Positions 16,926-38,361 of a DNA stretch of 64,000 nucleotides are shown piece after piece. The number at the start of each line of letters is the position of its first letter. Position 1 is the first letter of the stretch. The translations under genes and the position numbers were made by a program. The notes under the pieces were generated by a model, which was not told where the DNA came from, did no database searches, and saw only the letters and a program-made list of their open reading frames with translations. Origin of the DNA: an uncultured SAR86 cluster bacterium (GTDB lineage Bacteria > Pseudomonadota > Gammaproteobacteria > Magnimaribacterales > Magnimaribacteraceae); assembly GCA_902594545.1 (NCBI GenBank), contig CACJMO010000001.1, positions 21,112-85,111 of the forward strand, read 5' to 3'.

Positions 16926-18823
16926 TCCTTATTTGATTTACTGTTTGAGTTACACGAAGGAGGTAAATTGATGGTTGGGTTCTTTTCAAAGAAACCTACC
17001 GGTATCAAATGGAATCCGCAATACTCAACAGGCATTACCGGCCAATCTTCTGGTCTTGGAGTATGCGTTACACCAAAAGTGTGCCAAGTTACTAAATCGC
17101 ACTCACTTATATCACGATTAGATGCAGTTAATTCATCTAAACCGCCTTCTCCGGAATGCATCACAGAATATTCACCTCCGGCTGCCTGCTCCCCCTTATC
17201 AAATGGTGTAGCCCACAGATTGTGCTTAGCAAAAGATGCCCTCTTTCCCGGAGGAGAATCTGGATGAGCTAGAAGAGCCGGAGTGTTGCCTGGTAATAGT
17301 TTATAACCAGATGGAAGACCGAAAGAATTCGTTTTATTAGCATTAATTATTTTCCATGTTCTACTGGAAGCATTCGAAACATTACGCTTAGCTTCGCTCT
17401 CAGTTTTTAGATGTTTAGCAACTGCACTAAGTTGCATTCCATGTGGATTATCTTCACTTATCGGCAAGGCTTCGACATTAGTCTCGTACAGCTGATTGTC
17501 TCCACTCTCTAGATCCCAATCCATTCTGACGCAAAATAAATGTTGATGAATAGGAGCCACTAATTCATCAGAGATACGGAAATCCTGATCTTTTCTGTGT
17601 ACTTTTTCATCGTAGGCGCTTATCCCGACTATACCTGTTAGTTTCACTTCGCACTGGACAGTGCCATCAAGGTATAAGTACCAGAAAAGTCCGTAGTCAT
17701 AATTTCCTATGGTCGCTATAGAACTTATAACTAATCGTCTGGATCGCCTAACTTCATTAGCGCCAAGCATATTCATATCCATGTGCTTCCATTGGATTCC
17801 ATAATCTTCCTCATGAATACAAATAGCACTTTCAATAGTATTTACTGATCCATCAAACATAAGCATATTGGCATCCATGTAGTAGATCTCACCCAAGCAA
17901 TCACAGCCCAGAGTTAAGGAATTAACCAGAGTTCCAAAACCATATTCGGTACCATCGTGTACTGCTTTCCAGCTATGCATTGGGTCAGCTGTCCCATAGG
18001 GAACAACCATATCTGAAAGAGCTACCCTATGAAGTATTGATCTGCCATCTAAAGATAACTGATGCAGAACAGGACCTTCGTCAGGATTTACAGAGACTCT
18101 GACCTGCCATCCTTCCCAACTGATGAGATTTCCTTTAACTTCAAAACCCGGTCCATCTGGTTGAGTGATATCAATCTTCTTAGGTTGATTTCTGAGCTCT
18201 GGTTGAGAGTCTGCATCGTACCTGGCGTGCGCTTTAGGCATTGGAACTACCCCATGATCTTCAACATGAGTGACCTTCTGTGAAGTCAGATCTATATGAG
18301 AAATAACTCCAGTAATAGGCTTGGCATATGCATTGTCTGTCTCATTTTCTCTTAAAAAAGATATTGTTTTGAGTGCTCTGTGACCTGGCTCAATGCTTTC
18401 ATGGACAATCCCTCCAGCTGGCCAAGGGTCAATCTGTACGAGATCCAGATCAGTGATATCTCTTTTTTTCAAAGCTTCCTGGTAACGCTCATCAGCTTTG
18501 GTTAGTTCCTGAGCTGCAAATACTTCGGCCATGCTATAAGAAACCTGGGCTTCGTTTGGTACTCTATCCACTTTAGCTATCTTTTTAGCAACCACATCTA
18601 ATATAGCTACAAAACCACCATCAGGTTGAGAGTCTATTCCACGAATTTTCAAATTTCTTGGGCAATCATCCCCTTCCTTGAAATTTCTTACAAATTCTTT
18701 ATCGGGCTCAACAAGGCTGATATTTACAAAAAGCGCATCATCCATAACAGACGAAGAAGATCTGCATAGTTCAACTGCAGTATTTATTTCGTCAGCTGTA
18801 ATCTGATCTAATGGGTGGTTCAT
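16922..18823 (-). CDS. Copper-containing primary amine oxidase
   Basis: TIGNYDY topaquinone consensus, HQH and THTPRPEDWP copper ligands; HPLD N-terminus with GGAGAG SD before ATG 18823. Confidence 0.93.
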   Translation of the reverse strand: MNHPLDQITADEINTAVELCRSSSSVMDDALFVNISLVEPDKEFVRNFKEGDDCPRNLKIRGIDSQPDGGFVAILDVVAKKIAKVDRVPNEAQVSYSMAEVFAAQELTKADERYQEALKKRDITDLDLVQIDPWPAGGIVHESIEPGHRALKTISFLRENETDNAYAKPITGVISHIDLTSQKVTHVEDHGVVPMPKAHARYDADSQPELRNQPKKIDITQPDGPGFEVKGNLISWEGWQVRVSVNPDEGPVLHQLSLDGRSILHRVALSDMVVPYGTADPMHSWKAVHDGTEYGFGTLVNSLTLGCDCLGEIYYMDANMLMFDGSVNTIESAICIHEEDYGIQWKHMDMNMLGANEVRRSRRLVISSIATIGNYDYGLFWYLYLDGTVQCEVKLTGIVGISAYDEKVHRKDQDFRISDELVAPIHQHLFCVRMDWDLESGDNQLYETNVEALPISEDNPHGMQLSAVAKHLKTESEAKRNVSNASSRTWKIINANKTNSFGLPSGYKLLPGNTPALLAHPDSPPGKRASFAKHNLWATPFDKGEQAAGGEYSVMHSGEGGLDELTASNRDISECDLVTWHTFGVTHTPRPEDWPVMPVEYCGFHLIPVGFFEKNPTINLPPSCNSNSKSNKD

Positions 18824-18927
18824 ATACTCTCCGGCATTTTTTCTCAATAATTCTACTCGGATCGTACCATTGAAGATATAGTTTGTGCAGTGTACCGTGA
18901 AGTTTACAAAGACAACTAACTTAAGAA

Positions 18928-23591: not shown

Positions 23592-23664
23592 ATAAATAGA
23601 AATTTAAGGAAAACAAAATAGAAAGTGACGAAACCGCCCTATCTATTTCAAGCTTTGTCAGAAA

Positions 23665-24402
23665 TTAATTCGTTTCTTCAGGATTGTCTGGAACAAAGTT
23701 GTCCTTGGCTTCGATAGTCATAACATCAACAATAACTCCGATAACCATGTTCAATAGGACCACGGCATTAATGATGATAAAGCTGACAAAATAAATCCAA
23801 GCCAGTGGGTAAGTGCCTATAACATCACCCATGATAGCTCCCCAGTCATCATAAGTAGCAACCTGCATCAGCGTGAGCATAGCCACACCAATATTGCCCC
23901 AACGATCCGGTTCGAGTTCTCCAAAAATTAAAGTGCCTATAGCACCCCAGATGTAAATAAAAATGAACATCAAAAGTGCTATAAAACCTACTCTCGGAAC
24001 GGTTTTAATCAAGGCTTCAATAATATGTCTAAAGGCAGGAACCACTGTCACTATTCTTAAAATTCTTATGATCCTTAAAAGACGAGCTACAAAAACACTT
24101 TCAGCACCCCCGACCGGGATTAAGCTAATGGTGACTATGATGAAATCAAACACATTCCATCCGTCCTTGAAAAACTTCACCAAAGACTTTTCAGCAATCA
24201 TTCGAATAAGAATTTCTATGGTGAAAAATATGGTGATTGCGTAGTCGAAGACCTCCAGAAGGTAGACATAGTTTGGAGGAATATCATAAGAGGAAACACC
24301 AGCGTATAGAGCTGAAGCAAGAATCACAGAAATTACTAGGGTATTAAAAAACCTGCTGTTTCTGATCTTGAGAAAAAAATCAACAAAACTATTTCCGTTC
24401 AA
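23665..24402 (-). CDS. Bacterial voltage-gated cation channel (BacNav/NaChBac-like, 6TM)
   Basis: DGWNVFDF (S3), RLLRIIRILR (S4 voltage sensor), pore QVATYDDWG, S6 LNMVIGVIV. Confidence 0.88.
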   Translation of the reverse strand: MNGNSFVDFFLKIRNSRFFNTLVISVILASALYAGVSSYDIPPNYVYLLEVFDYAITIFFTIEILIRMIAEKSLVKFFKDGWNVFDFIIVTISLIPVGGAESVFVARLLRIIRILRIVTVVPAFRHIIEALIKTVPRVGFIALLMFIFIYIWGAIGTLIFGELEPDRWGNIGVAMLTLMQVATYDDWGAIMGDVIGTYPLAWIYFVSFIIINAVVLLNMVIGVIVDVMTIEAKDNFVPDNPEETN

Positions 24403-24444
24403 AACTGTCTCCTTTTCTGCATTATAGTTTAAAAGTTTAAATTA

Positions 24445-27400
24445 CTAGCAACCTCCGCTAGCACAAATCAAATAAATACCTTCCGCCATATAAAAATCAT
24501 TCGCTCCAGCAGTTCCTGTATCTCCAGATTTATATAAATTCACATTCACTCGTCCTCCACTCTCCGTAGGAGAAGAATCGCCGAAAAGAGCGCCCGCAAC
24601 TGCAGCTCCACCTAGCCAACTGTTATCAAGAGAATCCGTAGAAGTCCCTGTGTAAGTATTATTGGTTCCTGTGATAGCAACGGAAAAAGAAGCGAAACCA
24701 GCATTTGCTACAATCGGATTTTTATCATCAAAGTTGGTGAAGTCTAAAGTGCCTGAGTAGCCACTAGCACCCCAGTTAAATGACGCAGCAACATCAGCTG
24801 TGGTTGTGTATTTATGTACATCGTAATTTGTACCTGTCTGGTTATGTCTGTATGCAACATTGACCGCAGCAGCACCACTCATGGAAGCAGATCCAGAAGT
24901 TGGTATTTCATTTTGATCCACGAGCTCACCGCCTACCCAAGTACCTAAGTGAACTGAAGCATTTTGATCACCTGAATTAGGAGTTATATCTGCAGCACTC
25001 ATGGCCCAGAAACCCCAGGTTGAATACTCAGTATTAGGCATTGAATCATTGCCACCTGTATGAAATAGATCAGAATCCTCTTTGTCCAATGTATTGTAAG
25101 AAACCATTACTCCAGCCAAGTTATTGGAGCCGCCTGAAGTTCCATCAATTTGCGCTCCGTCATCTTGAATTTCAGCACCAAAGACTTCACTTGAAATATA
25201 GGCTGATTTTGCTTCATCGTTGGTGGTATCGCCAAACTTTAAAGTCATAGAGCCGGTATCCACTGTGCTCCAATTGGAAGTATAGTTATTTGAGGGTGCT
25301 GCACTGATGGTCATAGGTGCAACTACCTGAACATCATCGTTGGTCGTATCAAACGTAAAGGTTGCAAGCGTGCTGCTTGAGCGAATCGAAGAAAGCTGAG
25401 AGTTACCTGTGCCACTGACATCAAACTCTAAAATGCCGCTGAAAATTCCGCTGTACCCCGTGGCACTGGATGAGTAAAAATCTGAAGATCTAAAATTACT
25501 TAAGCTTGCATAGTCTGCATAAGATGAGCTTGAAGGTTTAACGTCTTGAACCACAGCAGAAATATTAAAGGAGCCAGTACTGAAGGTATCATTGTTTGAG
25601 TTGTAATTAACTCCCAAGGTCATATTACCTGACTTGTAGGGATCAGAAGATGTGATCATGGCGCCCCCAGGTTGATTGGAGCTATCACCCCAAAAGCAGC
25701 CACTATCATTAGAGGTTGCACACTCAATAGGAGAAGTACCGTAATTAATGCCCAGACCATCATTATCTGCATTGGTCGCACCTTGATAGGACCAATAATG
25801 ATAACCATCCATGCCCAAGCCAGTGTCTCCAGCTGAGTATCTGGTAGTATCATTTTTTCGATAATCCACATTAGATATCACAACATTCAATAGACTTTCT
25901 TGGTCATCTCGAGTGGTACTGCCTGAGGCACCGTCATAGGAATCTTTCAAAGAAATTTGTGCCCAAAGTCCAACCCCTATACCGCTTGGATTTAGTACCT
26001 GCCACCACATGGATTGACCTTCAGGCAACTCATTATCGCTGCCATTGAATCTAGAGGTATCAATCATAGAACTACTTAAGGCGGTGCTAGAGAAATCATA
26101 GTAGTTATCATAGCTGCCGTTACATGCCGAGGCGTTATTGCCAATCCCTAAGCAATAATCATGTCCAACATCACCATAAGACCAAAGCGTTTTTGGAATG
26201 AAATTAGGAATAAAATAATCGTTGCTGCTTCCACTAGCAGCAAAGTTTTCAAGTGGGATGACTGCCATGGCAATGACTCGCTTGTTGCTATCTGTAAAGG
26301 ATAAAAAGTTAGCATCCTTATAAACTTCTCCGGCTAGAGTTACTTGATCCTCATAGAGGTTGTAGGTGGATGTGGTTGGAGAACCAAAGGTGGTATTCGC
26401 GTAATTGATTATTTGTGTATCTAAACTTGAATCCATTTGCTGATTGACAGTAAGCCAAATAAAAACATCTGATTTGTATTCCGAGTCAGTCATCGAAGCT
26501 GGGAAAAAAGCAAATGATCCAAAACAATAAGTATCAAAGCCTGATGGACAATTTAATTGTGAATCACCTCTACTCGAGGCGCTCGATTGAAATCTAAATC
26601 CTGAATAAGTAAAGTCAACGCTCGGCATTCCGCCTGCGCTCCAACTAAAATCGCTACCACTCATAATGGTTTCTAGAAAAGTTACTATGGAATTATTTTT
26701 ATTTGTCCAATTGGAATTCTCACCAGTAAAAACTAGAACCTTATTTTCTTGCTGAATAAATGATAGTGCTGCTGACCTGTTACCAGCATAATTTGTATCA
26801 TCAGTTCGACTGTAAGCATCGTTTGCGCCATCAATCACTACACCATAACCAGATAAATCTGAAAAGGTGTAATTTCTGAGTTCGTGTTGATAAGAAGCAG
26901 TAAGAGGGTTGGTAGCAGCACTGTTTGCCTGAGTCCAGAATGTCTCGTAATTATAAGCACCTTGGTAATGGTTTGTAATTAAAAGGTCACCAATATCACC
27001 ACTGCTGCTGGTATAACTTACTTGTGCTTCTGCCTTATCGGTGGTCATGAACCAATATTCTGCGCTATAAAGTCGTCCTGCAGTCAGGAAGTCAGCATTG
27101 GCTATGGTGGTGGTGACTGCTGTGCCTAGAGGGCTGTAATACTTACCATCTACTACCTCAGAATTTGGTGCAAAAGAATAAAAGCCATTACCGGAGATAT
27201 CAGTGGGAAAGTAATATCGCCAATTTAGTTGGGTACCAGAATTGATCTCAACTGGCACATAATTGTTAGCCGTATCATCCACACTGGTAATATCAGTTGA
27301 ATTGGTGGTACCGACTTGTTCTAAAGTGTATGCAGCGAGACTTGATCCAGAAGGACCACGAGTTGCAGTTGCACTAAATCCACTTCTTGAAACTGAATTA

Positions 27401-30400
27401 TAATCAGCAGAATATCGTAGTACTGCCGATTCAAGTTCTTCAATATTACCCACATTGACCGTGAAATTATCAGTAGTTGTGGTGCCTCCTCCTGAAGCAG
27501 TTAACGTAAGTGCATAACTCTTGGCTGTTTCAAAATCCAAAGTAGCATTGGTGGTAATGTTACCATTGCTATCCACAGCAAAATTACTGCTGCCAGTGCC
27601 ACTTAGAGTATAAGAGACGCTGTCACTGTCAGGATTATTGATACTGGAACTACCGACCGAAGTTCCAGAACTAGAAGACTCGGCTAGAGCAGCTCCACTA
27701 TTTGCCAAGGAAACTGCAAGCGTATTGATTACTTCGTTATCTACAGTCAGTGTAAAAGTCTGTGATGTTGTGGTTACTCCATCAGTGGCTGTAACAGTAA
27801 AAGAATGAGATGTTTTGGTTTCGTAATCCAAGGCATTAGCAAGCGTTACCTCACCAGTAGAGCTGTTGATCGCAAATTTATTATCGGCATCAGTGATTGA
27901 GTAGCTTACTGTGCCTTCACTGTCTAACGCAGAGGACGTCACAATAGTTGTACCTGTAGAGATAGTTTCCAATTGAGAGCTTGAAGCCAGAGATGCGCTG
28001 AAAGCTAAGTCAACATCGGTTACATTTAATGTGAAAGTTTCTGAACTCGAAGTAGTCCCATCTGTTACTGTTACCGTAAACGAATGAGAAGTTTTAGTTT
28101 CGTAGTCCAAAGCATTTGCCAACGTAACCTCACCAGTAGAGTTGTTGATCGCAAATTTATTATCGGCATCAGTGATTGAGTAGCTTAGAGTTCCTTCAGC
28201 ATTACTTGTTGAAATCGTCAATATTGATGTGCCTGTTGATATAGTCTCTGCTTGATTTTCAGAAGCCAAACTTGAAGTTACCATTAGATCTACATCGGTA
28301 ACATTTAGAGTAAACGTTTCAGAGGTTGTAGTAACGCCATCGGTAGCAGTTACGGTGAAGGAGTATGAGGTATTGCTTTCGTAATCTAAAGCGCTTGCAA
28401 GAGTGACTTCACCCGTAGCACTGTCTATAGAAAATTTATTATTGGAATCTGTCAGTGAATAACTGACTATACCCTTACTTTCTGAGGTTGAAGAAGTCAG
28501 AATAGATGTTCCCGTAGAAATATTTTCTTGTTGCGAAGATTGAGCTAAAGCACCGGTAAAGGTTAGACCCGCATCCCCAACATTTAGCGTGAAGGTCTCA
28601 GATGAAGTCGTAACTCCATCAGTAGCCGTTACAGTAAATGAGTGAGAGGTTTTAGTTTCATAATCCAAAGCATTAGCAAGTGTTACCTCACCGGTAGAGC
28701 TATTAATTGAGAATTTGTTATCTGCATCTGTGATCGAGTAACTAACTGTTCCCTTACTTTCTGAGGTTGAAGAAGTCAGAATAGAAGTTCCTGTAGATAT
28801 ATTTTCTTGTTGCGAGGATTGAGCTAAAGCACCGCTTAAGGAAAGACCAGCATCCCCAACATTTAGCGTGAAGGTCTCAGATGAAGTCGTCACTCCATCA
28901 GTAGCCGTAACCGTGAAGGAATGAGAGGTTTTGGTTTCATAATCTAATGCACTGGAAAGGGTTACTTCTCCGGTAGAGCTGTCGATGGAAAATTTACTGT
29001 CATCATCAGTTAAGGAGTAACTGACTGTTCCTTCACTATTAGAAGCAGAGGACGTCACAATAGTTGTACCTATAGATATATCTTCGTTTTGATTTTGTGA
29101 TTCTAATGTTCCCGAATAACTAAGATTAATGTCGCTGACAGTAATCGTGAGTTGCTTAGTTTTAGTTTCTTTTCCATCTGAAGCAGAAACGGCAAGTGTA
29201 TAAGAATCTTTTGATTCAAAGTCCAATGCTGATTCAAGAGTAATCTTGCCCTGACTATCTATAGAAAAAATATTACTCTCTAATGTAGCATCATCTAGAT
29301 CTGTAATAGAGTATGTGACTTCTCCGGCAGCATCTGAAGAGCTTGCGATTGCTACAGACGTACCCGTTGATATATTTTCTGCCAGCGTAACTTCTGTAGC
29401 ATCTAAAGAAAGAGAAAGTTCACTAATATCAGTTACCGAGAAGCTTATCTGAGTTTGTATCGAGTTGGTGCCATCACTACTCGTCAGAGTCAATTCATAA
29501 GAAGTTTTGGTCTCGTAATCTAAACCGGTCTTCAAAGTAATGACGCCTTGATCGTCAACTGAAAATTGATCACTTCCTGTACCTGATAAAGTATAAGTAA
29601 GTGTGTCGGATTCAGGATCGGTGTAAGCAACGGTAGCTATAGTTGATCCTGTAGTAATATTTTCAGCAAATTCACTTCCCTGAAGGCTGATTTTTACATC
29701 TGGTGATTCATTAACATCTGATAACGTAATAGTAAGAGGTGAAGTTGTAGAATTGGTTCCATCAGATGCTGTGATGTTGAAGGTATAAGATTTTTGTGTC
29801 TCATAATCAAAAGCTACCTTCGAAGTAATATTGCCTTCGCTATCGATCTCAAAGTTTTCACTGTCCGTTCCCGATAAAGAATAGGTAATAGTTTGAGATT
29901 CTGGGTCGATGGAACTAATCGTAGCCAATGCAGTGCCCACTGCAATGCTTTCTTCAAAACTTTCTGATTTCAGCGATGAAGAGAGACTGGGTGCCTCATC
30001 AACATCAGATATATCAAATGTAATTACAGAGCTGCTTGTCAATTCACCATCACTAGCAACTAAGGTAATTTCATAATTGTTGTCAGTTTCGAAGTCTAAA
30101 TTATTCTTTAGAGTTACATTTCCTTTCTCATCCACATAAAAGTATTCACTTCCCGTACCTATCAAACTATAAGTTATCGCATTGGACTCAGGATCTGAGG
30201 CGCTTGAAGTTGCAATAATCGTACCAATGGCTGAATCTTCACTAAAAGATGTCAAAGCCAAGGTTGAAGATAATGAAGGTGCTTCGTTAATATCACCAAC
30301 ATTGATTAAAACTTCCGTCTCAGAGCTAAGCTCTCCATCAGTCGCTGTTACAGTGAGCGTGTAAGAGGCTTTGGCTTCAAAATCAAAGCTCTCAGCCAAA

Positions 30401-32265
30401 GTAATATTGCCAGATTCATCAATAGAGAATTTATCGCTACCCTCTCCACTTATTGAATAAGTTACTTCTTGATTCTCAGGATCGGAGATAGTTACTCCTA
30501 CTAAAACAGACCCTACAGATAGGTCTTCTGCATAAGAGTCCTGAATTTCTGTACTTACTGATGGAGCTTCATTGATATCTCTAACCGAGATATTCACAGG
30601 TATTACCACTTCTTCGTCTTCCCTTTGGACTATAAGGCTTAATGAGAAGTTAGTTTTATCTTCATAGTTTGCATTTCCTATGAAGATTAAAGTTCTAGAA
30701 GATGTATCAAATAAAAATGAATCTTTATCATCTCCGTCAATAGTAACTACAACTTCTACGTCATCGTCTTTATTGGTAATAAGGCTTGTTAAATTTATAT
30801 CTGTCTCATTTTCATTTAATTGTATATTTTCATTGCTTAGCAAAGCATCAAAGGGAGCTTCTTCAACGACGGTTTCGGTTGTTTCTACAGCCGCATTATC
30901 TTCAATAGAGGTCTCAGAAGCTTCTTCTGTTTCTTCAGCAGTCTCCTCAACTTCATCAGAGGTTGTATCAATATCTATTTCTGTTTCCACAACATCATCA
31001 GACGTAGAAAGTTCTGAAGGAGCTATATCTGAAGAATTATCTGATACACCAGAAGAATCTAAGGCACTTTCATCTACATCAGGTTGAGGGTCATCATCTA
31101 CTGCTGTAGTTGTATCTGGTTGATCGGAAGTTTGAGCTTTTGACCCAGAGTCAGATGAAATATCTGCTTGTGCAGTGTCATTATCTGTTCTTGATTCTGT
31201 TTCAGTATCAGTATCAGAAGAATTTTCTTGTTGGATTTCATTATTCTGGTCTTGAATATCAGAATTATTATTTTCTTCGGTGGTACTTTCTTCCTGCTCC
31301 ACCGAAACATTCTCATCTAGGGTTGCTTGATCAGGTTCTTGACTTTGCTCCTCAGAATTTTCTTGTTGGATTTCATTATTCTGGCCTTGATTATCAGAAG
31401 TATTGTTTTCTTCGGTGGTACTTTCTTCCTGCTCCTCCGAGGTTTTCTCATCTGGGGTAGATTGTTCAGATTCTTGACTTTGCTCCTCATTAGACTCTTC
31501 TTCCGTAGCTTCCTCTTCGGTTGATTCCTCTTCGGTTGATTCCTCTTCGGTAGACTCCTCTTCGGTAGACTCCTCTTCGGTAGATTCCTCTTCTGAATTT
31601 TCATCGGTTGAATCGCCATCCGACTCTTCATCATTCTCTCTTGCCTCTAGACCTTTCTGAAGTTCTGCAAGAAAAGTTTCACTCAGTTGTTCTGGATCTC
31701 CTACTTCAGCAGTAGGATCTTCAACTGTAACGATAAATCCATTTTCAGTCAGACTGGTTGCAGCTGAACTATTCTGATTCGGGGTCATAGTTAATTCATC
31801 ACCATAAACAAAAGCAGCTGAGGTTGATAAGCCTTGTGTTTGGACAATGGTTATTCCCCCTCTTATTCCAACAGTTGCTGAGTTAGTTCTAATTAATGCA
31901 GGCCTTTTCTTGGTAACCTTCCCACCAACCAACCTTAGCAAGCCCCTGGAAGATACCTCTAAAGAACCCTCTGCGGTCTCAGGGTTGTAAATAAATTTAT
32001 CTAGAGTTACTGAAGAATTAGGACCAATAGAGAAAGATGTGCCGTCTATAAGCAGAAGAGCAGCTCGACCTATAGCATCTGTTTCTAAAGTATGATTTTG
32101 AATTATCTTATATCCAGCCTGTATAAGCCTTCTTTCCTCTGCTAGGGTTAAATCTGTTGTATTTTTATTTACAGCAGAGGCAACACCTATCTCTCCTTCT
32201 GTGAAAACTGCATTAACGTTCATCAATAAGATGAATAATATGGTTTTCTTCAAAACTTTAATCAT
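24445..32265 (-). CDS. Giant (2606 aa) secreted protein: FecR domain, acidic repeat linker, about 12 cadherin-like domains, C-terminal TbpB-like beta-barrel
   Basis: Signal peptide; FecR pattern (TDAIGRAALLLIDGTSFSIGPNS...TNSATVGIRG); repeated LD[YF]E...TVTATDG cadherin motifs; C-terminal IPTSGSA..SG and GALFG...ESGG motifs typical of TbpB/HpuA-like barrels. Confidence 0.8.
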   Translation of the reverse strand: MIKVLKKTILFILLMNVNAVFTEGEIGVASAVNKNTTDLTLAEERRLIQAGYKIIQNHTLETDAIGRAALLLIDGTSFSIGPNSSVTLDKFIYNPETAEGSLEVSSRGLLRLVGGKVTKKRPALIRTNSATVGIRGGITIVQTQGLSTSAAFVYGDELTMTPNQNSSAATSLTENGFIVTVEDPTAEVGDPEQLSETFLAELQKGLEARENDEESDGDSTDENSEEESTEEESTEEESTEEESTEEESTEEEATEEESNEEQSQESEQSTPDEKTSEEQEESTTEENNTSDNQGQNNEIQQENSEEQSQEPDQATLDENVSVEQEESTTEENNNSDIQDQNNEIQQENSSDTDTETESRTDNDTAQADISSDSGSKAQTSDQPDTTTAVDDDPQPDVDESALDSSGVSDNSSDIAPSELSTSDDVVETEIDIDTTSDEVEETAEETEEASETSIEDNAAVETTETVVEEAPFDALLSNENIQLNENETDINLTSLITNKDDDVEVVVTIDGDDKDSFLFDTSSRTLIFIGNANYEDKTNFSLSLIVQREDEEVVIPVNISVRDINEAPSVSTEIQDSYAEDLSVGSVLVGVTISDPENQEVTYSISGEGSDKFSIDESGNITLAESFDFEAKASYTLTVTATDGELSSETEVLINVGDINEAPSLSSTLALTSFSEDSAIGTIIATSSASDPESNAITYSLIGTGSEYFYVDEKGNVTLKNNLDFETDNNYEITLVASDGELTSSSVITFDISDVDEAPSLSSSLKSESFEESIAVGTALATISSIDPESQTITYSLSGTDSENFEIDSEGNITSKVAFDYETQKSYTFNITASDGTNSTTSPLTITLSDVNESPDVKISLQGSEFAENITTGSTIATVAYTDPESDTLTYTLSGTGSDQFSVDDQGVITLKTGLDYETKTSYELTLTSSDGTNSIQTQISFSVTDISELSLSLDATEVTLAENISTGTSVAIASSSDAAGEVTYSITDLDDATLESNIFSIDSQGKITLESALDFESKDSYTLAVSASDGKETKTKQLTITVSDINLSYSGTLESQNQNEDISIGTTIVTSSASNSEGTVSYSLTDDDSKFSIDSSTGEVTLSSALDYETKTSHSFTVTATDGVTTSSETFTLNVGDAGLSLSGALAQSSQQENISTGTSILTSSTSESKGTVSYSITDADNKFSINSSTGEVTLANALDYETKTSHSFTVTATDGVTTSSETFTLNVGDAGLTFTGALAQSSQQENISTGTSILTSSTSESKGIVSYSLTDSNNKFSIDSATGEVTLASALDYESNTSYSFTVTATDGVTTTSETFTLNVTDVDLMVTSSLASENQAETISTGTSILTISTSNAEGTLSYSITDADNKFAINNSTGEVTLANALDYETKTSHSFTVTVTDGTTSSSETFTLNVTDVDLAFSASLASSSQLETISTGTTIVTSSALDSEGTVSYSITDADNKFAINSSTGEVTLANALDYETKTSHSFTVTATDGVTTTSQTFTLTVDNEVINTLAVSLANSGAALAESSSSGTSVGSSSINNPDSDSVSYTLSGTGSSNFAVDSNGNITTNATLDFETAKSYALTLTASGGGTTTTDNFTVNVGNIEELESAVLRYSADYNSVSRSGFSATATRGPSGSSLAAYTLEQVGTTNSTDITSVDDTANNYVPVEINSGTQLNWRYYFPTDISGNGFYSFAPNSEVVDGKYYSPLGTAVTTTIANADFLTAGRLYSAEYWFMTTDKAEAQVSYTSSSGDIGDLLITNHYQGAYNYETFWTQANSAATNPLTASYQHELRNYTFSDLSGYGVVIDGANDAYSRTDDTNYAGNRSAALSFIQQENKVLVFTGENSNWTNKNNSIVTFLETIMSGSDFSWSAGGMPSVDFTYSGFRFQSSASSRGDSQLNCPSGFDTYCFGSFAFFPASMTDSEYKSDVFIWLTVNQQMDSSLDTQIINYANTTFGSPTTSTYNLYEDQVTLAGEVYKDANFLSFTDSNKRVIAMAVIPLENFAASGSSNDYFIPNFIPKTLWSYGDVGHDYCLGIGNNASACNGSYDNYYDFSSTALSSSMIDTSRFNGSDNELPEGQSMWWQVLNPSGIGVGLWAQISLKDSYDGASGSTTRDDQESLLNVVISNVDYRKNDTTRYSAGDTGLGMDGYHYWSYQGATNADNDGLGINYGTSPIECATSNDSGCFWGDSSNQPGGAMITSSDPYKSGNMTLGVNYNSNNDTFSTGSFNISAVVQDVKPSSSSYADYASLSNFRSSDFYSSSATGYSGIFSGILEFDVSGTGNSQLSSIRSSSTLATFTFDTTNDDVQVVAPMTISAAPSNNYTSNWSTVDTGSMTLKFGDTTNDEAKSAYISSEVFGAEIQDDGAQIDGTSGGSNNLAGVMVSYNTLDKEDSDLFHTGGNDSMPNTEYSTWGFWAMSAADITPNSGDQNASVHLGTWVGGELVDQNEIPTSGSASMSGAAAVNVAYRHNQTGTNYDVHKYTTTADVAASFNWGASGYSGTLDFTNFDDKNPIVANAGFASFSVAITGTNNTYTGTSTDSLDNSWLGGAAVAGALFGDSSPTESGGRVNVNLYKSGDTGTAGANDFYMAEGIYLICASGGC
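27440..30850 (-). repeat. Array of about 12 cadherin-like repeats (about 93-100 aa); the central copies have a 279-bp nucleotide period
   Basis: 12 LD[YF]E-type motifs counted; the segment GCATCCCCAACATTTAGCGTGAAGGTCTCAGATGAAGTCGT recurs at 28571 and 28850. Array boundaries are approximate. Confidence 0.85.
31219..31488 (-). repeat. Tandem duplication of a 135-bp (45-aa) acidic segment
   Basis: EEQSQE...NNEIQQENS occurs twice back to back, with visible nucleotide similarity. Confidence 0.88.
31489..31593 (-). repeat. 15-bp coding tandem repeat x7 (EEEST)n
   Basis: TCCTCTTCGGTAGAC-like unit repeated; encodes EEEST x5, EEEAT, EEESN. Confidence 0.92.
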
Positions 32266-33608
32266 GAGTTAGAGTTGTTAAACAAACATACATAGCTAAA
32301 ATCTGCAGTGATCTGTAAGTTCGATTTAGCAAAAATTTCTATTGAACTGTTATTGTCATTTTTAGAGAGTCGATAGCTTTCAAAAAAACAGTTGTCAGAA
32401 GAACTTTTGGAGAATTCAAGCTTCATGGAATTGAGCTTATCTTTTCTTTCTCCAAAAACGGGTAATGGAGAAAAATGAGATTTATTTACATGTGAAAGCG
32501 AGGCCTTAAAGCCCCATCCTTTTCCTAGTACTGAAGTAATATTCAAACCAAATGAATTTGACTGATATGTTTCATAGGAAGCTTTTGCATTGTATTTAGA
32601 GTACTCATATTCTATTTCGGTCAAAATATTTGAATCCGATATATAGGAATTAGAAAGAAAAAGACCATTCATTAAACCACTCTTAAGATCATTAATCAGA
32701 AACTTCCTCTGATCATGGAATCCTCCTATAGCGAAATAAGCACTATCTGAAAGTGCTCCTGTAAATTTTAGGTCATACTTTTGTGAGTTAAGAAGTGATT
32801 TATCTGCTAACAACACAATAAATCCTGTAATTGTCGCATCAAGAGAGGGACGACTGAATATAGAAGTAGGATTTCCTTCAAGATTAAATGTTCTTGTAGC
32901 TGAAGTAACAATTGAGGAGGTGTCAAACTGACTAAAAGTTTCCAGTCTTTGATCAGTAAGAGCAATAAGGTAGTTAACCTTATCCCCTCGAGGGTGGTTG
33001 AGATCCTGATTAAGTGTATAGGTATACCTAATATTTCTTGTAAGATCATTTTTAGGCTTCGAACTATCGGGAACTTCTAAGGCAAAGCCTGCAATTTCAA
33101 TGATATCATCATCTATACCGGAATTTGCGTTACTTGATCTAGTAAGTCCCATACTGAGTATGTGCTGATGTACAAAGTCTCTCTCTGCCTCAACTATCGA
33201 GTCTAAAAAGGAATCTACTTTTTTGAGCACTTCTTCAGGAGCATCGTATTTTTTGACACTATTAAGATAAAGCTTAGCTGAAGGATAAGCATTAAGACGA
33301 AAATACAAAACCCCTAACTCAAGTCGTATTCTTGGAAGATCCGGTTCGTAAATTAGCATTTGCTCGAAAACACTAATAGCAGCCTCTAAATCTCCTAAGA
33401 GAATAGAAAGATTTGCATATTTAAATAGAAAATCTAGATTGGTGGGATCTTCAATCAGCTCAGCAAAGATTTTTTCTCTTTGTAAATTTGTCTCTTCAAT
33501 TAATTTTGGATCTGTAATGGCTGGAGTTACATTTACCGCAACTACAGTTTGAGAGTAAAAGACCCAAACTACAAATAATATAAAAAACTTGCCCTTAAAG
33601 AGTTTCAC
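32262..33608 (-). CDS. TPR + outer-membrane beta-barrel protein (Slam / DUF560 / T11SS-like)
   Basis: Signal peptide; TPR segment EPDLPRIRLELGVLYF; SSNANSG at the barrel start; alternating beta-strands; ATGA overlap with the giant gene. Confidence 0.68.
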   Translation of the reverse strand: MKLFKGKFFILFVVWVFYSQTVVAVNVTPAITDPKLIEETNLQREKIFAELIEDPTNLDFLFKYANLSILLGDLEAAISVFEQMLIYEPDLPRIRLELGVLYFRLNAYPSAKLYLNSVKKYDAPEEVLKKVDSFLDSIVEAERDFVHQHILSMGLTRSSNANSGIDDDIIEIAGFALEVPDSSKPKNDLTRNIRYTYTLNQDLNHPRGDKVNYLIALTDQRLETFSQFDTSSIVTSATRTFNLEGNPTSIFSRPSLDATITGFIVLLADKSLLNSQKYDLKFTGALSDSAYFAIGGFHDQRKFLINDLKSGLMNGLFLSNSYISDSNILTEIEYEYSKYNAKASYETYQSNSFGLNITSVLGKGWGFKASLSHVNKSHFSPLPVFGERKDKLNSMKLEFSKSSSDNCFFESYRLSKNDNNSSIEIFAKSNLQITADFSYVCLFNNSNS

Positions 33609-33698
33609 GCTATTTTTCTAAAGGTTTACCAAAAAAACTGACGAATTATCAAATATTTAATGAAGTAAAGAAAGATAATTCTCCTATTTTCTGATACC

Positions 33699-34352
33699 AT
33701 GTCAGAAAATTTTAAAAAAATGTCAAAAACAAGACAAAGAACTGAAAATAAACTGCTAAAAGCAACAGAAGAATTACTTGATCTTAATGGCTACAAAGAA
33801 CTTGATGTAAAAACCATCACCAACCTCGCAAGGGTTTCTTACGGCACTTTTTACAATTACTTTTCTTCAATTGAAGAGATTCATGAAAGGATTGTTAAAG
33901 AGAAGGTATCTGAGGTGGCCACCCAATTAAGAAACTCTGCACAAGGTATACAAAGTCCACTTAATAGAGCTTTTTTTGGTTGGTACATGTCTCTAAAATT
34001 ATTTTCAAATGACCCTTCTGCGGGCTGGATCATTGAAAGACCTGAAGTAATAAATGAAGTGTGGAAGAATACAGCTGAAGAAATGCAAGAAGGCTTGGTA
34101 ATTGAAGCAATTAAAGGAGGAGAGATTCCCGGTTCGGAGATCGATACATTACTACATTTTAGGAAAGCAAGAGATACAATGAGAGCGGGTTATGTAACCG
34201 TGCTTGAAAAGGTAATAAATGGGCAAACTGCCGAGAAAGCGTTTTATGATTATATGACTACGTTGAATTTATTCAATTTAGAGCCAAAAAAAGTCGAAGC
34301 CATTCTGGATGAAGTTTTAAATGAATCTGCAAAGCTGACTCGGAGCATATAA
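33699..34352 (+). CDS. TetR/AcrR family transcriptional regulator
   Basis: N-terminal HTH GYKELDVKTITNLARVSYGTFYNYF. Confidence 0.88.
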   Translation: MSENFKKMSKTRQRTENKLLKATEELLDLNGYKELDVKTITNLARVSYGTFYNYFSSIEEIHERIVKEKVSEVATQLRNSAQGIQSPLNRAFFGWYMSLKLFSNDPSAGWIIERPEVINEVWKNTAEEMQEGLVIEAIKGGEIPGSEIDTLLHFRKARDTMRAGYVTVLEKVINGQTAEKAFYDYMTTLNLFNLEPKKVEAILDEVLNESAKLTRSI

Positions 34353-34354
34353 CT

Positions 34355-36532
34355 ATGGCTAAATACGGAAAAAATCTATTACTGCCCTTCGCGGTGCTGT
34401 TATCTTTCTTTCCATTATTGGACCCATTAGAAATATTTAGTGATCTTAAGATTACGTCTTTTGATACATTTCAGACTATTTTTCCAAGACCCAAACTTGA
34501 GGAAGATCCCGTTATTATTGTGGATATTGATGATGAGTCTTTGCAAAAAATAGGACAATGGCCTTGGTCAAGAGATGCTCTTGCTAGCCTTACTGATCAA
34601 ACCCAATTGGCTGCGGCTACGGCTTTTGACATAGTATTTGCAGAACCGGATAGAACGGGATCGAGTCAACTACAGCAAATTTATTCCAATGATGAAGCAT
34701 TGGTTGAAATACTTTCTAGGACTATTGATCACGATGATTTATTTGCTCAGTCCATTGCCAACCACGGCACTGTTGTTTTAGGACTGGCTCCAAATAATAA
34801 AACCGAGAGTCAAAACTATCTAGGTAAGCATGGCATGGTCATTCAAGGAGATGATCCAAAACTTTTCGTCCAACCTTATACCGGTATGCAGAATAATCTA
34901 GATAAACTTGAAACTGAGAGCGCAGGTTTGGGCAGTATGAGCATAGGGAATGATGATGTAATTGTAAGAACCCTTCCTAGTTTTGAAAATATAAATGGAT
35001 CCTTAGTGCCTTCCCTTCCATTAGAAATTGTTAGGGTAGCAATTGGAGCATCAACTTATCAAGTGAAGTCTTCAAATGCATCAAGTGAAGAAGCATTTGG
35101 AGAAAATACCGGTATTAATCACGTCAAACTTGGGTCATTGATCATGCCTACAAATGCAGATGGGAGTTTCTGGTTATATCCAACAAAGAGCAATAACCTT
35201 TCTGTGTTGCCTGCATGGCAGGTTATAGAAGGTGTTGTAGATCCTTACTTTTTTGAAGGAAAGGTAGTAATAGTTGGCACGAGTGCTTCTGGATTGTTTG
35301 ACCTTAGATCTAATGCCTTGGAAAAGAATATCCCTGGAGTTTCAATTATTGCTCAGTTTGTTCAACAAATCTTTTCAAACTCCTTCCTAAAGAGACCGGA
35401 TTGGCTTTTGGGACTTGAGTTTCTGATGGGTTTGCTCTTTTCAGTAGTGATAACACTCACCATACAAAAACAAGGACCGATAGGTGGGCTTGTTGCCTTT
35501 GGCATTGGCAATGGATCCATTGTTTATGGAAGTTACTACATTTTCATCAATCATCAATTCTTGGTTGATCCTATCTCCCCAATGGTTATTTGTCTTCTGG
35601 CCTATTTGATCATTACCTTCTTTAATTTTCTATTTACAGAAATGGAAAGAAGTAAAGTTAGAAATGCTTTCTCGCAATACCTAAGCCCTGTCATGGTAGA
35701 AAAACTAGCACAATCAAGTGAGTCTTTGGTTTTAGGTGGAGAGAGAAAAGAAATGACTGTTTTATTTTCCGACATTCGAGGATTTACTGCTATTTCTGAG
35801 AACTATAAAGATAATCCAGAGGGTCTAACTGATCTTATTAATCAATTACTGTCTACGCTAAGTAACGAGATACTAAAAACTGAGGGAACCATCGATAAAT
35901 ATATGGGAGATTGCATCATGGCCTTTTGGAATGCACCCATTGATCAAGAAAATCACAGGGAAAGGGCAATAGAGGCTGCGTTTAATATGCAAATTGCATT
36001 AAGAGAATTAAACGAAGAATTAGGAAAATATGACCAAGATGAAATGGCTATTGGAATAGGAATCAATACTGGAGAATGTATAGTTGGCAACATGGGATCA
36101 GAACAAAGGTTTGATTACACGGTTTTAGGTGATTCGGTTAATTTAGCTTCAAGACTCGAAGGTCAGTCGAATAACTATGGATTTCCTATGATACTGGGAC
36201 AATCATCTGTTGAAGGCTTAGATTCAAATAGAGTGATTGAGCTCGATCTAATCTCTGTAAAAGGTAAGAAAGAGCCTGAAAGGATCTATACCGTCCTTGG
36301 AGAAGACATAGAAATAGGCAATGAAAAAGTATTTTTTGAGGAGCATGCTAAATTTATAGAAATGTATAGAGGCCAAGATTGGAGCCAAGCTAGTATGCAT
36401 ATAGAAAAATACGCAAATAATGTACCCTCCTTTAACCTATACTACGAACTAATTTCAAATAGGATTGAAGAATATATTGAAAATCCACCTCCAAGTGATT
36501 GGGAAGGTGTTTTCGTAGCTAAAACAAAATAG
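34355..36532 (+). CDS. CHASE2-domain class III adenylate/guanylate cyclase
   Basis: CHASE2 motifs IVDIDDESL...GQWPWSR and FDIVFAEPD; 3 TM helices; catalytic FSDIRGFT, DKYMGD, DYTVLGDSVNLASRLEG. Lys and Thr at the specificity positions suggest ATP. Confidence 0.93.
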   Translation: MAKYGKNLLLPFAVLLSFFPLLDPLEIFSDLKITSFDTFQTIFPRPKLEEDPVIIVDIDDESLQKIGQWPWSRDALASLTDQTQLAAATAFDIVFAEPDRTGSSQLQQIYSNDEALVEILSRTIDHDDLFAQSIANHGTVVLGLAPNNKTESQNYLGKHGMVIQGDDPKLFVQPYTGMQNNLDKLETESAGLGSMSIGNDDVIVRTLPSFENINGSLVPSLPLEIVRVAIGASTYQVKSSNASSEEAFGENTGINHVKLGSLIMPTNADGSFWLYPTKSNNLSVLPAWQVIEGVVDPYFFEGKVVIVGTSASGLFDLRSNALEKNIPGVSIIAQFVQQIFSNSFLKRPDWLLGLEFLMGLLFSVVITLTIQKQGPIGGLVAFGIGNGSIVYGSYYIFINHQFLVDPISPMVICLLAYLIITFFNFLFTEMERSKVRNAFSQYLSPVMVEKLAQSSESLVLGGERKEMTVLFSDIRGFTAISENYKDNPEGLTDLINQLLSTLSNEILKTEGTIDKYMGDCIMAFWNAPIDQENHRERAIEAAFNMQIALRELNEELGKYDQDEMAIGIGINTGECIVGNMGSEQRFDYTVLGDSVNLASRLEGQSNNYGFPMILGQSSVEGLDSNRVIELDLISVKGKKEPERIYTVLGEDIEIGNEKVFFEEHAKFIEMYRGQDWSQASMHIEKYANNVPSFNLYYELISNRIEEYIENPPPSDWEGVFVAKTK

Positions 36533-36533
36533 T

Positions 36534-37265
36534 ATGAAAAAAATTTTATTACTCGGATTATTTTTAAATGCTTTCTCTGTTTATGGAGAGGCAATTGTGA
36601 ATATTGAAGATCAAAGAAATGAAGGAGAAGTTGGGTTCTTTTCAAAGATTGGCTTTCAATTGAGCGGCTCTAGGGGAAATGAAGATAGAGACTTCTATTC
36701 TCTCAATCTAAGACTGGATAACAATACAGAAAATATAGAATCTTTTTTGATTGCTCAAACTTCAGAGAGAAAGAAGAATGAAATTAAAACATCTGATTCT
36801 ACATTTGTGCATGGTAGATTAATTTTCTTAAATAAAACTCGTTTCAGTACCGAGTTTTTTGCTCAACATAGTAAAAATCCTTTTAGAAGTTTCCTTCAAA
36901 GAGATGTGATGGGTTTTGGTACAAGAATTAGTCTTGATGAGTCAACCAAGCTAGGTTTTGGTGTTTTAACTGAAGATGAAGAGGACTTACAAGGTATAGA
37001 GACTGATACGGAGAGGCTCTCTATGTACTTTACCGATAAGTATGAGCTAGCTGAAAATATAGACTTACTTCTTACTGCTTATTATCAACCTTCACTTGAT
37101 GAAACGGATGATTACAAAGCAAGTATTTTGACGGGAGTTAATTTCAAGGTAAATGAAAATGTAAGTATTTCACTTCAATTCAGCAGTTTCTATGATTCGA
37201 TACCCCCCGAATTTGCTGATAAACAAGACGAGCAAATATCTACAGAATTTTCTTACTCTTTTTAA
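36534..37265 (+). CDS. DUF481-like outer-membrane beta-barrel protein
   Basis: Signal peptide; SGSRGNED first-strand pattern; amphipathic strands; C-terminal FSYSF BAM signal. Confidence 0.65.
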   Translation: MKKILLLGLFLNAFSVYGEAIVNIEDQRNEGEVGFFSKIGFQLSGSRGNEDRDFYSLNLRLDNNTENIESFLIAQTSERKKNEIKTSDSTFVHGRLIFLNKTRFSTEFFAQHSKNPFRSFLQRDVMGFGTRISLDESTKLGFGVLTEDEEDLQGIETDTERLSMYFTDKYELAENIDLLLTAYYQPSLDETDDYKASILTGVNFKVNENVSISLQFSSFYDSIPPEFADKQDEQISTEFSYSF

Positions 37266-38305
37266 CTATTGATAGCGTCTAACTTAGCTTCAATAGCTTG
37301 GAATAAAACTGGATGTTCATCGAACAGCTCTTCCAGATCCTCTTTCTTAAGTTGCAAGAGCTTCACTTCTTCAAGTGTAGTGATGGTCGCATTTCTGGGA
37401 TTATTATTTATTAAACCCATTTCTCCAAAATAATCACCCGGCTCTAAAACAATTGGATTTTCTAGTTCAACCCGTGCTCTACCCGATTCGATAATGTACA
37501 TAGAATCTGCTTCTTCCCCCTTTTCAAAAACGGCTTCATTTGGAGGCAGTAAAACAGCGTCTAACTTTTCGTTGATCTTACTCAAGGCTTTGATGGGAAG
37601 CTCTTCGAATAAGGGCACTTCTAAAATGGCCTCGAAAGTAACCAGGAAGTTTCTTTTTTGCATTTCTTCATAGTATGCAGAACCTAAGATTGCAGCAGGT
37701 AAAGCAAACATACCTATCCCCAGCAACATAGTGAGTGTTCCCAGTACCTTACCTAGAGGTGTAATAGGATGCACATCTCCATAACCAACGGTAGTCAAAG
37801 TTTCCATTCCCCACCATATTGCCAAAGGTATACTTCCGAATTTATCTGGTTGTGCTTCCCTCTCCACAAAATACATGATGGTAGAAAATAGTAAAAGGAC
37901 AGACAGCACTAAAAAAAGTGAACCTAGTAAGCTATGTCTTTGAACATGAATAGTCTTAAAAAGAGTATTACTAGGAAGCAATATTCTTGTTCTGCTGAAT
38001 ATATCGAAGAATCTAAAGAGTCTAAAAATTCTTAAATCTAGTATTCCAATGAAATAGAAGTTTATTAGCACTAAGCTGTCTACCGTATTAAGAAACCCAA
38101 GCTGCTTTTCGATGAAGAATCTATAAATAAGTTCTCCCAAGAAAATGACCATAGAAACTTGATAGAAAAGATCTCCGTAAGCCAGAATATTCTGGTATTC
38201 CATTAAGTCCATAGAGGAGACTATTTGATGAAGGATATTAAGGAATATCAGTGCCCCAATACATTTTTCAAATAGAGCTCTGGATTTATTCTTTGTGCTT
38301 TCCAT
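37262..38305 (-). CDS. Cyclic-nucleotide-gated potassium channel (MloK1-like)
   Basis: TTVGYGD K+ filter; short S6-CNBD linker YYEEMQKRNF...VPLF; phosphate-binding cassette FGEMGL....RNAT. Confidence 0.9.
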   Translation of the reverse strand: MESTKNKSRALFEKCIGALIFLNILHQIVSSMDLMEYQNILAYGDLFYQVSMVIFLGELIYRFFIEKQLGFLNTVDSLVLINFYFIGILDLRIFRLFRFFDIFSRTRILLPSNTLFKTIHVQRHSLLGSLFLVLSVLLLFSTIMYFVEREAQPDKFGSIPLAIWWGMETLTTVGYGDVHPITPLGKVLGTLTMLLGIGMFALPAAILGSAYYEEMQKRNFLVTFEAILEVPLFEELPIKALSKINEKLDAVLLPPNEAVFEKGEEADSMYIIESGRARVELENPIVLEPGDYFGEMGLINNNPRNATITTLEEVKLLQLKKEDLEELFDEHPVLFQAIEAKLDAINS

Positions 38306-38361
38306 AATATAAATTAATTTATTACGACTTATATAAAGATAAAATTTAACTTTTTAAAAAA

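Follow-up and report, generated by a model that had tools for sequence, protein, structure and literature searches.

Known Systems and the SAR86 Locus

Clustering of genes for FecR-domain and CHASE2-domain proteins has been published for Campylobacterota (PMC9239204) and Burkholderiales (PMC5192318). In Campylobacterota, the cluster comprises a CHASE2 adenylate cyclase, a phosphodiesterase, a FecR-domain outer membrane protein, and a tetratricopeptide repeat (TPR) protein that were proposed to form a single pathway (PMC9239204). In Burkholderia, a biofilm operon encodes a LysM-FecR protein and a CHASE2 kinase, and the ligand of CHASE2 was called unknown (PMC5192318). Here, we describe a locus in a 64,000 nucleotide stretch of DNA (hereafter the window) from an uncultured SAR86 cluster bacterium that encodes a giant surface protein, a Slam-like barrel protein, a CHASE2 class III adenylyl cyclase, a DUF481 barrel, and a MloK1-like K+ channel, together with a BacNav-like channel and a TetR-family regulator. 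Across SAR86, the first five of these are retained or lost jointly, and they likely make up a single circuit.

The SAR86 locus resembles the Campylobacterota cluster in that a CHASE2 class III cyclase occurs with FecR-domain and TPR proteins (PMC9239204). It differs in that no phosphodiesterase and no CRP-like protein were found in the genomes that carry it (carriers), the FecR domain heads a 2,600 aa cadherin protein with a TbpB-like end, and a DUF481 barrel and a putatively cAMP-binding K+ channel are added. In S. meliloti, a single outer membrane β-barrel receptor, NsrA, signals via the CHASE2 cyclases CyaK, CyaD1, and CyaD2 to the CRP-family protein Clr, and NsrA is needed for activation by an external macromolecule (PMC7529298, PMC13001267). 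Both systems combine an outer membrane component with CHASE2 cyclases; however, in SAR86 the barrel and the FecR-like protein are separate, a channel is the putative output, and a CRP-family output was not found in any of five carriers. NsrA itself may carry a FecR domain.

Individual components also have described relatives. MloK1 of Mesorhizobium loti (mll3241; PDB 2zd9, 4chv) and the SAR86 K+ channel share a core of six transmembrane (TM) helices, a TVGYG filter, and a short linker to a cyclic nucleotide-binding (cNMP) domain, whereas the window copy has Ile in place of the lid residue Arg348, S4 arginines (R92, R95, and R98) that are invariant, and a dedicated cyclase alongside. As in type XI secretion (Slam/DUF560), a protein with TPRs and a 14-strand barrel is encoded beside a cargo with a C-terminal TbpB-like barrel (PMC8406197; bioRxiv 2024.09.26.615229), but the SAR86 cargo is ~2,600 aa long, lacks a lipobox, and probably remains in the pore as a plug. 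Neither of those two articles mentions FecR, cyclase, or CHASE in its main text. Retained adhesins such as LapA and MpIBP resemble the predicted giant in their N-terminal periplasmic plug, repeat stalk, distal ligand domains, and C-terminal export signal (bioRxiv 198937; PMC5550230). They use type I secretion and c-di-GMP-controlled release, whereas SAR86 likely exports the giant by a Slam-type route, with a plug that is proposed to pass a signal inward to a cyclase. Lastly, the BacNav-like channel has the one-domain, six-TM form and four S4 arginines of BacNav channels (NavRh, 4dxw) and of engineered CavAb and CaChBac, with Asp-Asp at filter positions 3-4 as in the engineered Ca2+ filter TLDDWSD; the natural TYDDWGA filter is without the Asp at position 7 (PMC8677417, PMC4692491).

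The earlier note on this DNA had considered the full combination to be undescribed. This agrees with a literature search, which missed most subscription journals and found no paper on a channel output of a CHASE2-FecR system, on this SAR86 locus, or on a MloK1-type channel tied to a native cyclase. CHASE2-FecR-TPR clusters themselves are already published; the window adds a block that is complete on one stretch of DNA, along with the scars of its deletion, the homology to plugs, and the altered lid residue.

Co-occurrence of Module Genes in SAR86 Genomes

Our survey set comprised 155 genomes of the order, namely those at least 80% complete and, in addition, the genome of the window (G000); a smaller set comprised 61 related genomes. 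A CHASE2 cyclase of the type encoded in the window (34355..36532, + strand; 725 aa; Pfam CHASE2 and Guanylate_cyc) was identified in 34 of the 155 genomes, while the broader models PF00211 and PF00027 matched in 35 and 38, respectively. Exactly one match to each model, no more than ~3 kb apart on one contig, was present in 33 genomes, and in every such locus that was mapped the PF00027 match was the MloK1-like K+ channel (window 37262..38305, - strand; 347 aa; Ion_trans and cNMP_binding). The 34th cyclase genome (G488) has a 2.25-kb contig ending in DUF481, and G559 has the channel and an SLC13 gene on a 2.6-kb contig, both pointing to assembly breaks. The other unpaired matches were a PF00211 cyclase of another kind, unmatched by the module cyclase (G035), lone FNR-like cNMP domains (G030, G502, and G514), and a match in a 963-codon frame (G051).

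Carriers thus have no PF00211 match besides the CHASE2 cyclase, and those with one match to each model have no PF00027 match besides the channel. An exhaustive profile search of G000 yielded no second cNMP domain; a second cNMP match, within a frame of 262 codons, does occur in G065, a genome found by way of one of its loci. The earlier note had stated beforehand that the idea of a common module would fall if relatives did not link the channels to the cyclase and adhesin genes. For the K+ channel, linkage to the cyclase survives, in 33 of 34 cyclase genomes.

The remaining components follow a similar pattern. Among the 61 related genomes, the cyclase and the K+ channel occur in the same 13, as does the DUF481 barrel (PF04338; window 36534..37265, + strand; 243 aa), a core member of the module that was otherwise found in one genome (G037). 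The N-terminal domain of the giant was detected in 12 of these 13 genomes; in the other (G014), the contig starts inside the Slam-like gene. Across the 155 genomes, the FecR-like domain of the giant was identified in 30, comprising 29 of the 34 cyclase genomes and G472, and the giant persists even in genomes in which it no longer lies near the cyclase. The Slam-like gene adjoins the cyclase in 12 of 12 relative loci. The association of the giant and the Slam-like barrel with the cyclase and channel, as put forward in the earlier note, is thereby borne out in relatives. The module is missing from ~120 of the 155 genomes, yielding a patchy distribution. Since the carrier genomes are kin, these counts show retention rather than independent origins.

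Outside of the order, FecR-like proteins adjoin 15 of 67 distant CHASE2 cyclases. Several distant CHASE2 cyclases lie beside other cNMP-fused membrane proteins, including an MscS (L124:12925-14400), an SLC13 transporter (L155:8502-10547), and an HlyD protein (L123:2821-4545), and membrane-transport outputs of CHASE2-derived cAMP may therefore recur. MloK1-like channels were also observed beside class III cyclases that are not of the CHASE2 type, namely in a Rokubacteria locus with three cyclases and in a gammaproteobacterium with an FHA-cyclase and a CRP (L067, L232, and L039); an ORF at L039:6936-8678 resembles a cyclase by eye only.

Gene Order, Block Loss, and Inheritance

Place, orientation, and spacing of the seven open reading frames (ORFs) were as given in the earlier note when the coordinates were re-read. 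In order along the locus, genes are separated by 42 bp, a 4-bp overlap, a divergent intergenic region of 90 bp (33609..33698) with a putative promoter role, 2 bp, 1 bp, and a 4-bp convergent overlap. A promoter scan of positions 33400-33900 was at chance level (2 sites versus 1.6 +/- 1.2 expected).

This gene order recurs in the window's own family and the same order is found in three families of the order. In the family denoted f2 (G522), the order is BacNav-like channel, giant, and Slam-like barrel, followed divergently by TetR, cyclase, DUF481, MscS, K+ channel, and SLC13. In the family denoted f3 the giant is relocated; the BacNav-like gene moved along with it in subgroup g12 and stayed beside the Slam-like gene in g15. 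The giant is likewise unlinked from the cyclase in G521. A fourth order was found in L029, L031, L035, and L093, such that at least four orders keep the parts of the module together.

Three genomes record the loss of the module. In G010 and G019, TauD is followed by a scar made up of ~25 codons from the end of the giant. In G006 the deletion has a different left end: TauD runs into the BacNav-like gene midway along it, with a short microhomology at the junction. The segment corresponding to window 24514..38351 was lost as a block at least two times independently, and the BacNav-like gene can remain. Recurrence of the gene order in three families, together with deletion of the block as a unit, indicates a linkage beyond chance. 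Insertion of the block by transfer into carriers is not favored, as the empty sites hold remnants of the block. No joint across the whole block is listed among the read joints of the DNA sequencing runs.

Phylogenetic trees of five members recover largely the same genus-level groups. Correlations of tree distances are moderate (rho 0.45-0.76; 13 genomes) and do not amount to a test of co-evolution. The agreement among the trees fits inheritance of the module from an early SAR86 ancestor. In one locus (L239, from G483) the Slam-like gene, the cyclase, and the channel are all broken by frameshifts or stops, through either pseudogenization or assembly error; frameshifted copies also occur in L087 and L104.

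The TetR-family regulator (33699..34352, + strand; 217 aa; TetR_N), which the earlier note had placed in the seven-gene cluster, is instead an optional member and was rejected from the core. It is absent from the cluster in G007, G015, G027, and six f3 loci, and is only 21-25% identical in G014 and G021; a TetR adjoins the relocated giant in G041 and G059.

Cyclase and K+ Channel Features

The cyclase has a CHASE2 sensor, TM helices, and the features of a class III adenylyl cyclase. Its catalytic and ATP-specifying residues (D473, D519, K515, T589, N596, and R600) are invariant in 12 of 12 cyclases. The purine-specifying positions match those of P. aeruginosa CyaB and are unlike those of the guanylyl-type 2w01; guanylyl specificity was accordingly rejected. 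No solved structure related to CHASE2 was found. A class I cyclase was not detected in any of five carriers tested, four of which are 93-96% complete, and none of these five has a CRP-type helix-turn-helix (HTH_Crp_2) above the cut-off.

The K+ channel aligns to MloK1 without gaps over residues 121-335 (E 3e-43). In its phosphate-binding cassette, E295 and R304 are invariant in 12 of 12 channels. Catalytic, filter, and cassette residues of the cyclase and channel are invariant across three families at 51-63% overall identity. The module channel may thus mediate a putative cAMP-dependent K+ flux.

Other genes in carriers bear on what such a flux might do. TrkH is present in four of four near-complete carriers and the channel is therefore not needed for basal K+ uptake. 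Flagellin was not found in any of five carriers, which renders a flagellar output unlikely; GGDEF domains were found in three of five. Given the presence of TrkH and the lack of detected flagellin, the output would most simply be a change in voltage or in K+ and turgor.

The Giant Surface Protein and Its Putative Exporter

The giant (24445..32265, - strand; 2606 aa) consists of a cysteine-free N-terminal leader, a FecR-like domain, an acidic linker, a cadherin stalk, a variable tip, and a TbpB-like C-terminal barrel. Giants in carriers are 2,000+ aa long and number one to three copies. The N-terminal domain (31651..32196, - strand; ~residues 24-205) resembles both FecR and adhesin retention plugs and is predicted to be periplasmic. 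For the FecR model (PF04773), the cut-off of 24 bits is exceeded only in a separate scan of the first 221 aa, which score 28.3 bits. A broad profile built from the domain and its distant relatives returned one match in the PDB, 5IX9 (the RIN region of MpIBP; E 9e-11), which is the periplasmic plug of that adhesin (PMC5550230), and 15 of 18 members matched the retention_LapA model (NF033682) at E<=0.1, below its cut-off. On the basis of this distant homology, the FecR-like domain may be a retention plug that remains periplasmic, where it could reach the CHASE2 domain. The periplasmic FecR domain of the earlier note thus gains indirect support. FecR-like domains also head large RTX, Ig, or cadherin adhesins beside CHASE2 cyclases in distant loci (L113, L122, L123, L152, L156, and L157); in three of these (L123, L152, and L157) the domain overlaps the LapA retention model, and retention scores in the distant loci are stronger than those in SAR86.

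Downstream of this domain, an acidic low-complexity linker (30856..31650, - strand; ~residues 206-470; 31-45% Asp/Glu) may cross the outer membrane. It is followed by a cadherin-repeat stalk (27376..30855, - strand) with 11 Pfam cadherin stretches in the window's giant and nine, eight, and six in three relatives, indicating that repeat number varies between genomes. The N-terminal domain is the most conserved part of the giant, at 93-94% identity among the five f1-type giants compared. Despite this, identity in the hypervariable tip (26371..27036, - strand; ~residues 1744-1965), a putative ligand-binding domain, falls to 28-36% in the giants of G011, G007, and G027. The contrast between N-terminal domain (65%) and C-terminal (92%) identity in the L101 giant suggests domain exchange. 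Read depth is low over 26469-27035 in four of four DNA runs, which fits a variable tip and is no evidence by itself; weak joints replace the tip in runs X15 and X7, where the bridging joints are short (25-28 letters). The best match of the tip in the PDB reached only E 0.025. Atlas matches to a Bacteroidota cluster (0.95) and to DUF4960-like proteins (0.94) provide a lead only. Tandem or duplicate giants with divergent tips were observed in L223, L225, L228, G503, G488, and G473, and a 1720-aa Calx-beta autotransporter with its own TetR directly follows the module in L249:14837-19999 (G510).

The C-terminal β-barrel (24463..24945, - strand) is predicted to be of the TbpB/NHBA type, the targeting domain of Slam (type XI) cargo. 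In an AlphaFold model of the last 400 residues (mean pLDDT 60.7), the barrel part reached ~80-90, and its top Foldseek matches were to the known Slam cargo barrels of NHBA (6cuj; E 5e-7), TbpB, LbpB, and HpuA. No Pfam or NCBIfam match for RTX repeats or a type I secretion signal was found on the giant. The adjacent gene (32262..33608, - strand; 448 aa; Pfam TPR) encodes a protein modeled (pLDDT 90) as an N-terminal TPR region followed by 14 long strands that form an outer membrane barrel. Foldseek matches to it were porin-type, with no Slam-named structure among the rows listed, and SlipAM was matched at E<=0.05 by four of 30 aligned relatives. The label Slam-like therefore reflects the predicted fold of TPRs and 14 strands rather than a Pfam match, as Pfam scores for Slam stay below cut-off. 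We consider the barrel likely to be both exporter and anchor of the giant. A second Slam-like barrel occurs with a short, 1222-aa giant in G053.

A BacNav-Like Channel Outlives the Block

The BacNav-like channel (23665..24402, - strand; 245 aa; Ion_trans E 2.8e-45) adopts a one-domain, six-TM fold, for which 4dxw is the nearest bacterial structure. The S4 arginines R107, R110, R113, and R116 are invariant in 16 of 16 such channels, and 13 of the 16 have the filter TYDDW rather than the Na+-type TLESW. All module-linked copies that were examined have TYDDW, as do 119 of the 120 top-ranked among 1,325 homologs; these 120 are all >=75% identical and hence not independent. A 2021 review reports that no native Asp-rich bacterial Ca2+ channel had been found and that the CavAb filter placed in NavPp gave no Ca2+ selectivity (PMC8677417). 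Because of the latter result, selectivity is not readable from the filter motif. Two BacNav-like channels with other filters were observed, one with a TLEGW filter like that of the native Ca2+ channel CavMr (L217:1282-2073, from G024; PMC8677417) and a divergent one with a TMSSW filter that lies directly beside a divergent DUF481 barrel in a genome without the cyclase (L220:7061-8520, from G037).

The gene directly follows the giant in f1, f2, and f3-g12, including five of five further f2 genomes, and follows the Slam-like gene in f3-g15. It was rejected as part of the unit that is gained and lost, being present in 20 of the 61 genomes, eight of which lack the cyclase. Among the copies in these eight genomes, four are intact with TYDDW, one is truncated, and three are divergent with other filters. 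Of the two channels, the K+ channel is tied to the cyclase; the BacNav-like channel lies outside the deleted unit and persists, intact and with the same filter, in four of 48 genomes without the module. The BacNav-like channel is a conserved neighbor that outlives the block.

Surroundings of the Locus

The 1.34-Mb window genome encodes a rhodopsin and occurs in marine metagenomes. At 23592-23664, the window is without a 348-aa alpha/beta-hydrolase seen between the enoyl-CoA hydratase and BacNav-like genes in G011, G007, G010, and G019, and a copper amine oxidase gene at 16922-18847 was not seen at that place in G010 or G019. Metatranscriptome contigs from two runs of one study cover 30 of 30 bins and those from two others 12 and 16 of 30; contigs cannot show transcription or its level and were not used as evidence.

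A Proposed Circuit and Its Alternatives

We propose that a load on, or a ligand bound to, the outer tip of the giant would switch on the cyclase. The resulting cAMP would act on the K+ channel, which is the sole cAMP receptor to have been detected, and cause it to open. The giant is predicted to enter the periplasm on a non-lipoprotein leader and to be threaded, C-terminus first, through the Slam-like barrel by way of its TbpB-like end. Its FecR-like domain would then be held in the periplasm as a plug, with the acidic linker crossing the outer membrane, and would contact the CHASE2 domain and control cyclase activity. The conserved residues of the cyclase suggest that it makes cAMP, and the genomic exclusion of other receptors suggests that cAMP opens the K+ channel. 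Contact with a particle or a cell is the presumed stimulus. In seawater, by our own reasoning, K+ entry and depolarization towards the K+ equilibrium potential (E_K) would be most likely. As K+ entry would depolarize the cell, the output would be electrical or osmotic rather than transcriptional. We regard the synthesis of cAMP and the opening of the K+ channel, taken alone, as probable, and the full chain from the tip to the K+ channel as a tentative proposal that falls somewhat short of even chances.

An additional step, in which depolarization opens the neighboring TYDDW channel and admits Ca2+ or Na+, is speculative and on balance doubtful; since the BacNav-like channel outlives the block, a voltage relay remains speculative. 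More demanding still is a gene-free touch-to-voltage circuit in which the plug of a Slam-threaded adhesin is the CHASE2-activating ligand, cAMP opens the K+ channel, and depolarization fires a native TxDDW Ca2+ channel, which we consider improbable.

Several observations weigh against the proposed circuit. The pairing of cyclase and channel was not seen outside of the order: the channel was in none of the 67 distant CHASE2 loci, a CHASE2 cyclase in none of 46 distant channel loci, and no CHASE2 cyclase lay within 10 kb of close channel homologs (52-55%) in five Rhodobacteraceae loci. No close ortholog was found in 400 genomes across the class. The pairing was therefore inherited within a single lineage, and the 33 genomes do not count as independent cases. 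Five of the 34 cyclase genomes are without a giant match and G472 has the giant without cyclase or channel, in assemblies that are incomplete, and G000 is only 71% complete. The window's barrel protein has no SlipAM (PF04575) match and scores 17.3 for TPR_Slam versus a cut-off of 35.2, and a profile of the giant's N-terminal domain made from SAR86 sequences alone matches 5IX9 weakly (E 0.017-0.018).

The regulation of cAMP raises further objections. A class II phosphodiesterase (PF02112) was found in none of five carriers and no CpdA was found among nine scanned of 23 metallophosphoesterase matches; HD and metallo-beta-lactamase types were not searched for. Pfam likewise detected no cAMP phosphodiesterase among the window's module genes. 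As no phosphodiesterase was found, the cAMP would be without a known off-switch. In addition, a gap-free extension of the MloK1 alignment places Ile345 of the window channel at the lid position R348. The lid Arg is kept in f2 and f3 channels and lost in the f1-type group. MloK1 R348 mutants bound cAMP at 16-25 uM and were nearly unselective (PMC4076524). Loss of the lid Arg may thus represent decay, or tuning to a fast, low-affinity response where no phosphodiesterase was found.

The gene neighborhood invites a reading of the module as an envelope-strain or osmotic sensor, in which the plug, tethered to the outer membrane, and the CHASE2 domain at the inner membrane would sense how wide or tense the periplasm is, K+ entry gated by cAMP would adjust turgor, and the tip would be incidental to signaling. 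MscS lies between DUF481 and the K+ channel, or beside the channel, in most f2 and f3 loci, followed by an SLC13/TrkA-C permease, and the cNMP-fused MscS (L124) and SLC13 transporter (L155) beside distant CHASE2 cyclases point in the same direction. However, MscS was rejected as a module-specific gene, as it is a single-copy core gene (51 of 61 genomes) located elsewhere in G000, and its adjacency may therefore be historical. A strain sensor would also have no need for a protein of such length with a hypervariable tip in up to three copies, and most SAR86 genomes manage without the module. We consider this explanation unlikely.

We assign a similarly low likelihood to the explanation that two functions are merely co-inherited, with the giant and the Slam-like barrel serving adhesion while the cyclase senses a small ligand, perhaps one that enters by the DUF481 barrel, and controls the channel independently of the giant. 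Unlinking of the giant from the cyclase in f3 and G521, the exact tracking of the cyclase by DUF481 (13 of 13), and the giant-only genome G472 would all be expected under this explanation. Yet the Slam-like gene stays with the cyclase in six of six f3 loci when the giant moves, the N-terminal domain is the part of the giant that is most conserved, and FecR-like proteins accompany CHASE2 both in the distant loci described above and in published clusters (PMC9239204, PMC5192318).

Patchy distribution, repeated loss, and a hypervariable, swapped tip might also be expected of a defense alarm in which a phage or predator on the tip elicits cAMP and depolarization as an abortive or dormancy response, analogous to Pycsar. 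The pairing of a class III cyclase with a cNMP-binding membrane effector follows Pycsar logic, and the PADLOC models PycC and PycTIR match the shared domains. Those matches are restricted to generic cyclase and cNMP domains, however, and the ATP-specifying residues of the cyclase are of the CyaB type, its sensor is CHASE2, its effector is a K+ channel, and the module is inherited largely vertically and lies at a metabolic locus. Membership in Pycsar, in which a pyrimidine-specific PycC is paired with a PycTM or PycTIR effector, was rejected on these grounds, and a defense role is very unlikely. Least credible is a decaying remnant of an ancestral FecR-CHASE2-CRP system that lost its regulator and in which the channel pairing is passive, since the lost lid Arg of f1-type channels, the undetected phosphodiesterase, and the frameshifted copies in G483, L087, and L104 that would fit it are set against residues that are invariant over three families, streamlined 1.1-1.6 Mb genomes that keep ~14 kb intact, and a linkage that survives rearrangement.

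Implications for SAR86

Bacterial cyclic-nucleotide-gated channels such as MloK1 are structural models. Because one cyclase and one receptor are co-inherited in SAR86 with no CRP detected, the physiological role of such a channel can be tested directly, either in E. coli or in liposomes. What CHASE2 domains sense was called unknown in the Burkholderia study (PMC5192318), and homology to plugs provides a concrete hypothesis. With its natural and conserved TYDDW filter, the BacNav-like channel is a candidate for the native, Asp-rich Ca2+ channel that was missing as of the 2021 review (PMC8677417).

That about one-fifth of SAR86 genomes encode a large and variable surface protein apparently wired to ion flux points to the sensing of surfaces or partners in a group usually considered free-living. 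If the touch-to-voltage circuit, which we consider improbable, is true, FecR-like plugs beside CHASE2 proteins would constitute a general class of inward-signaling adhesin anchors, and SAR86, among the most streamlined of ocean bacteria, would possess a counterpart to the transduction of sensory cells.

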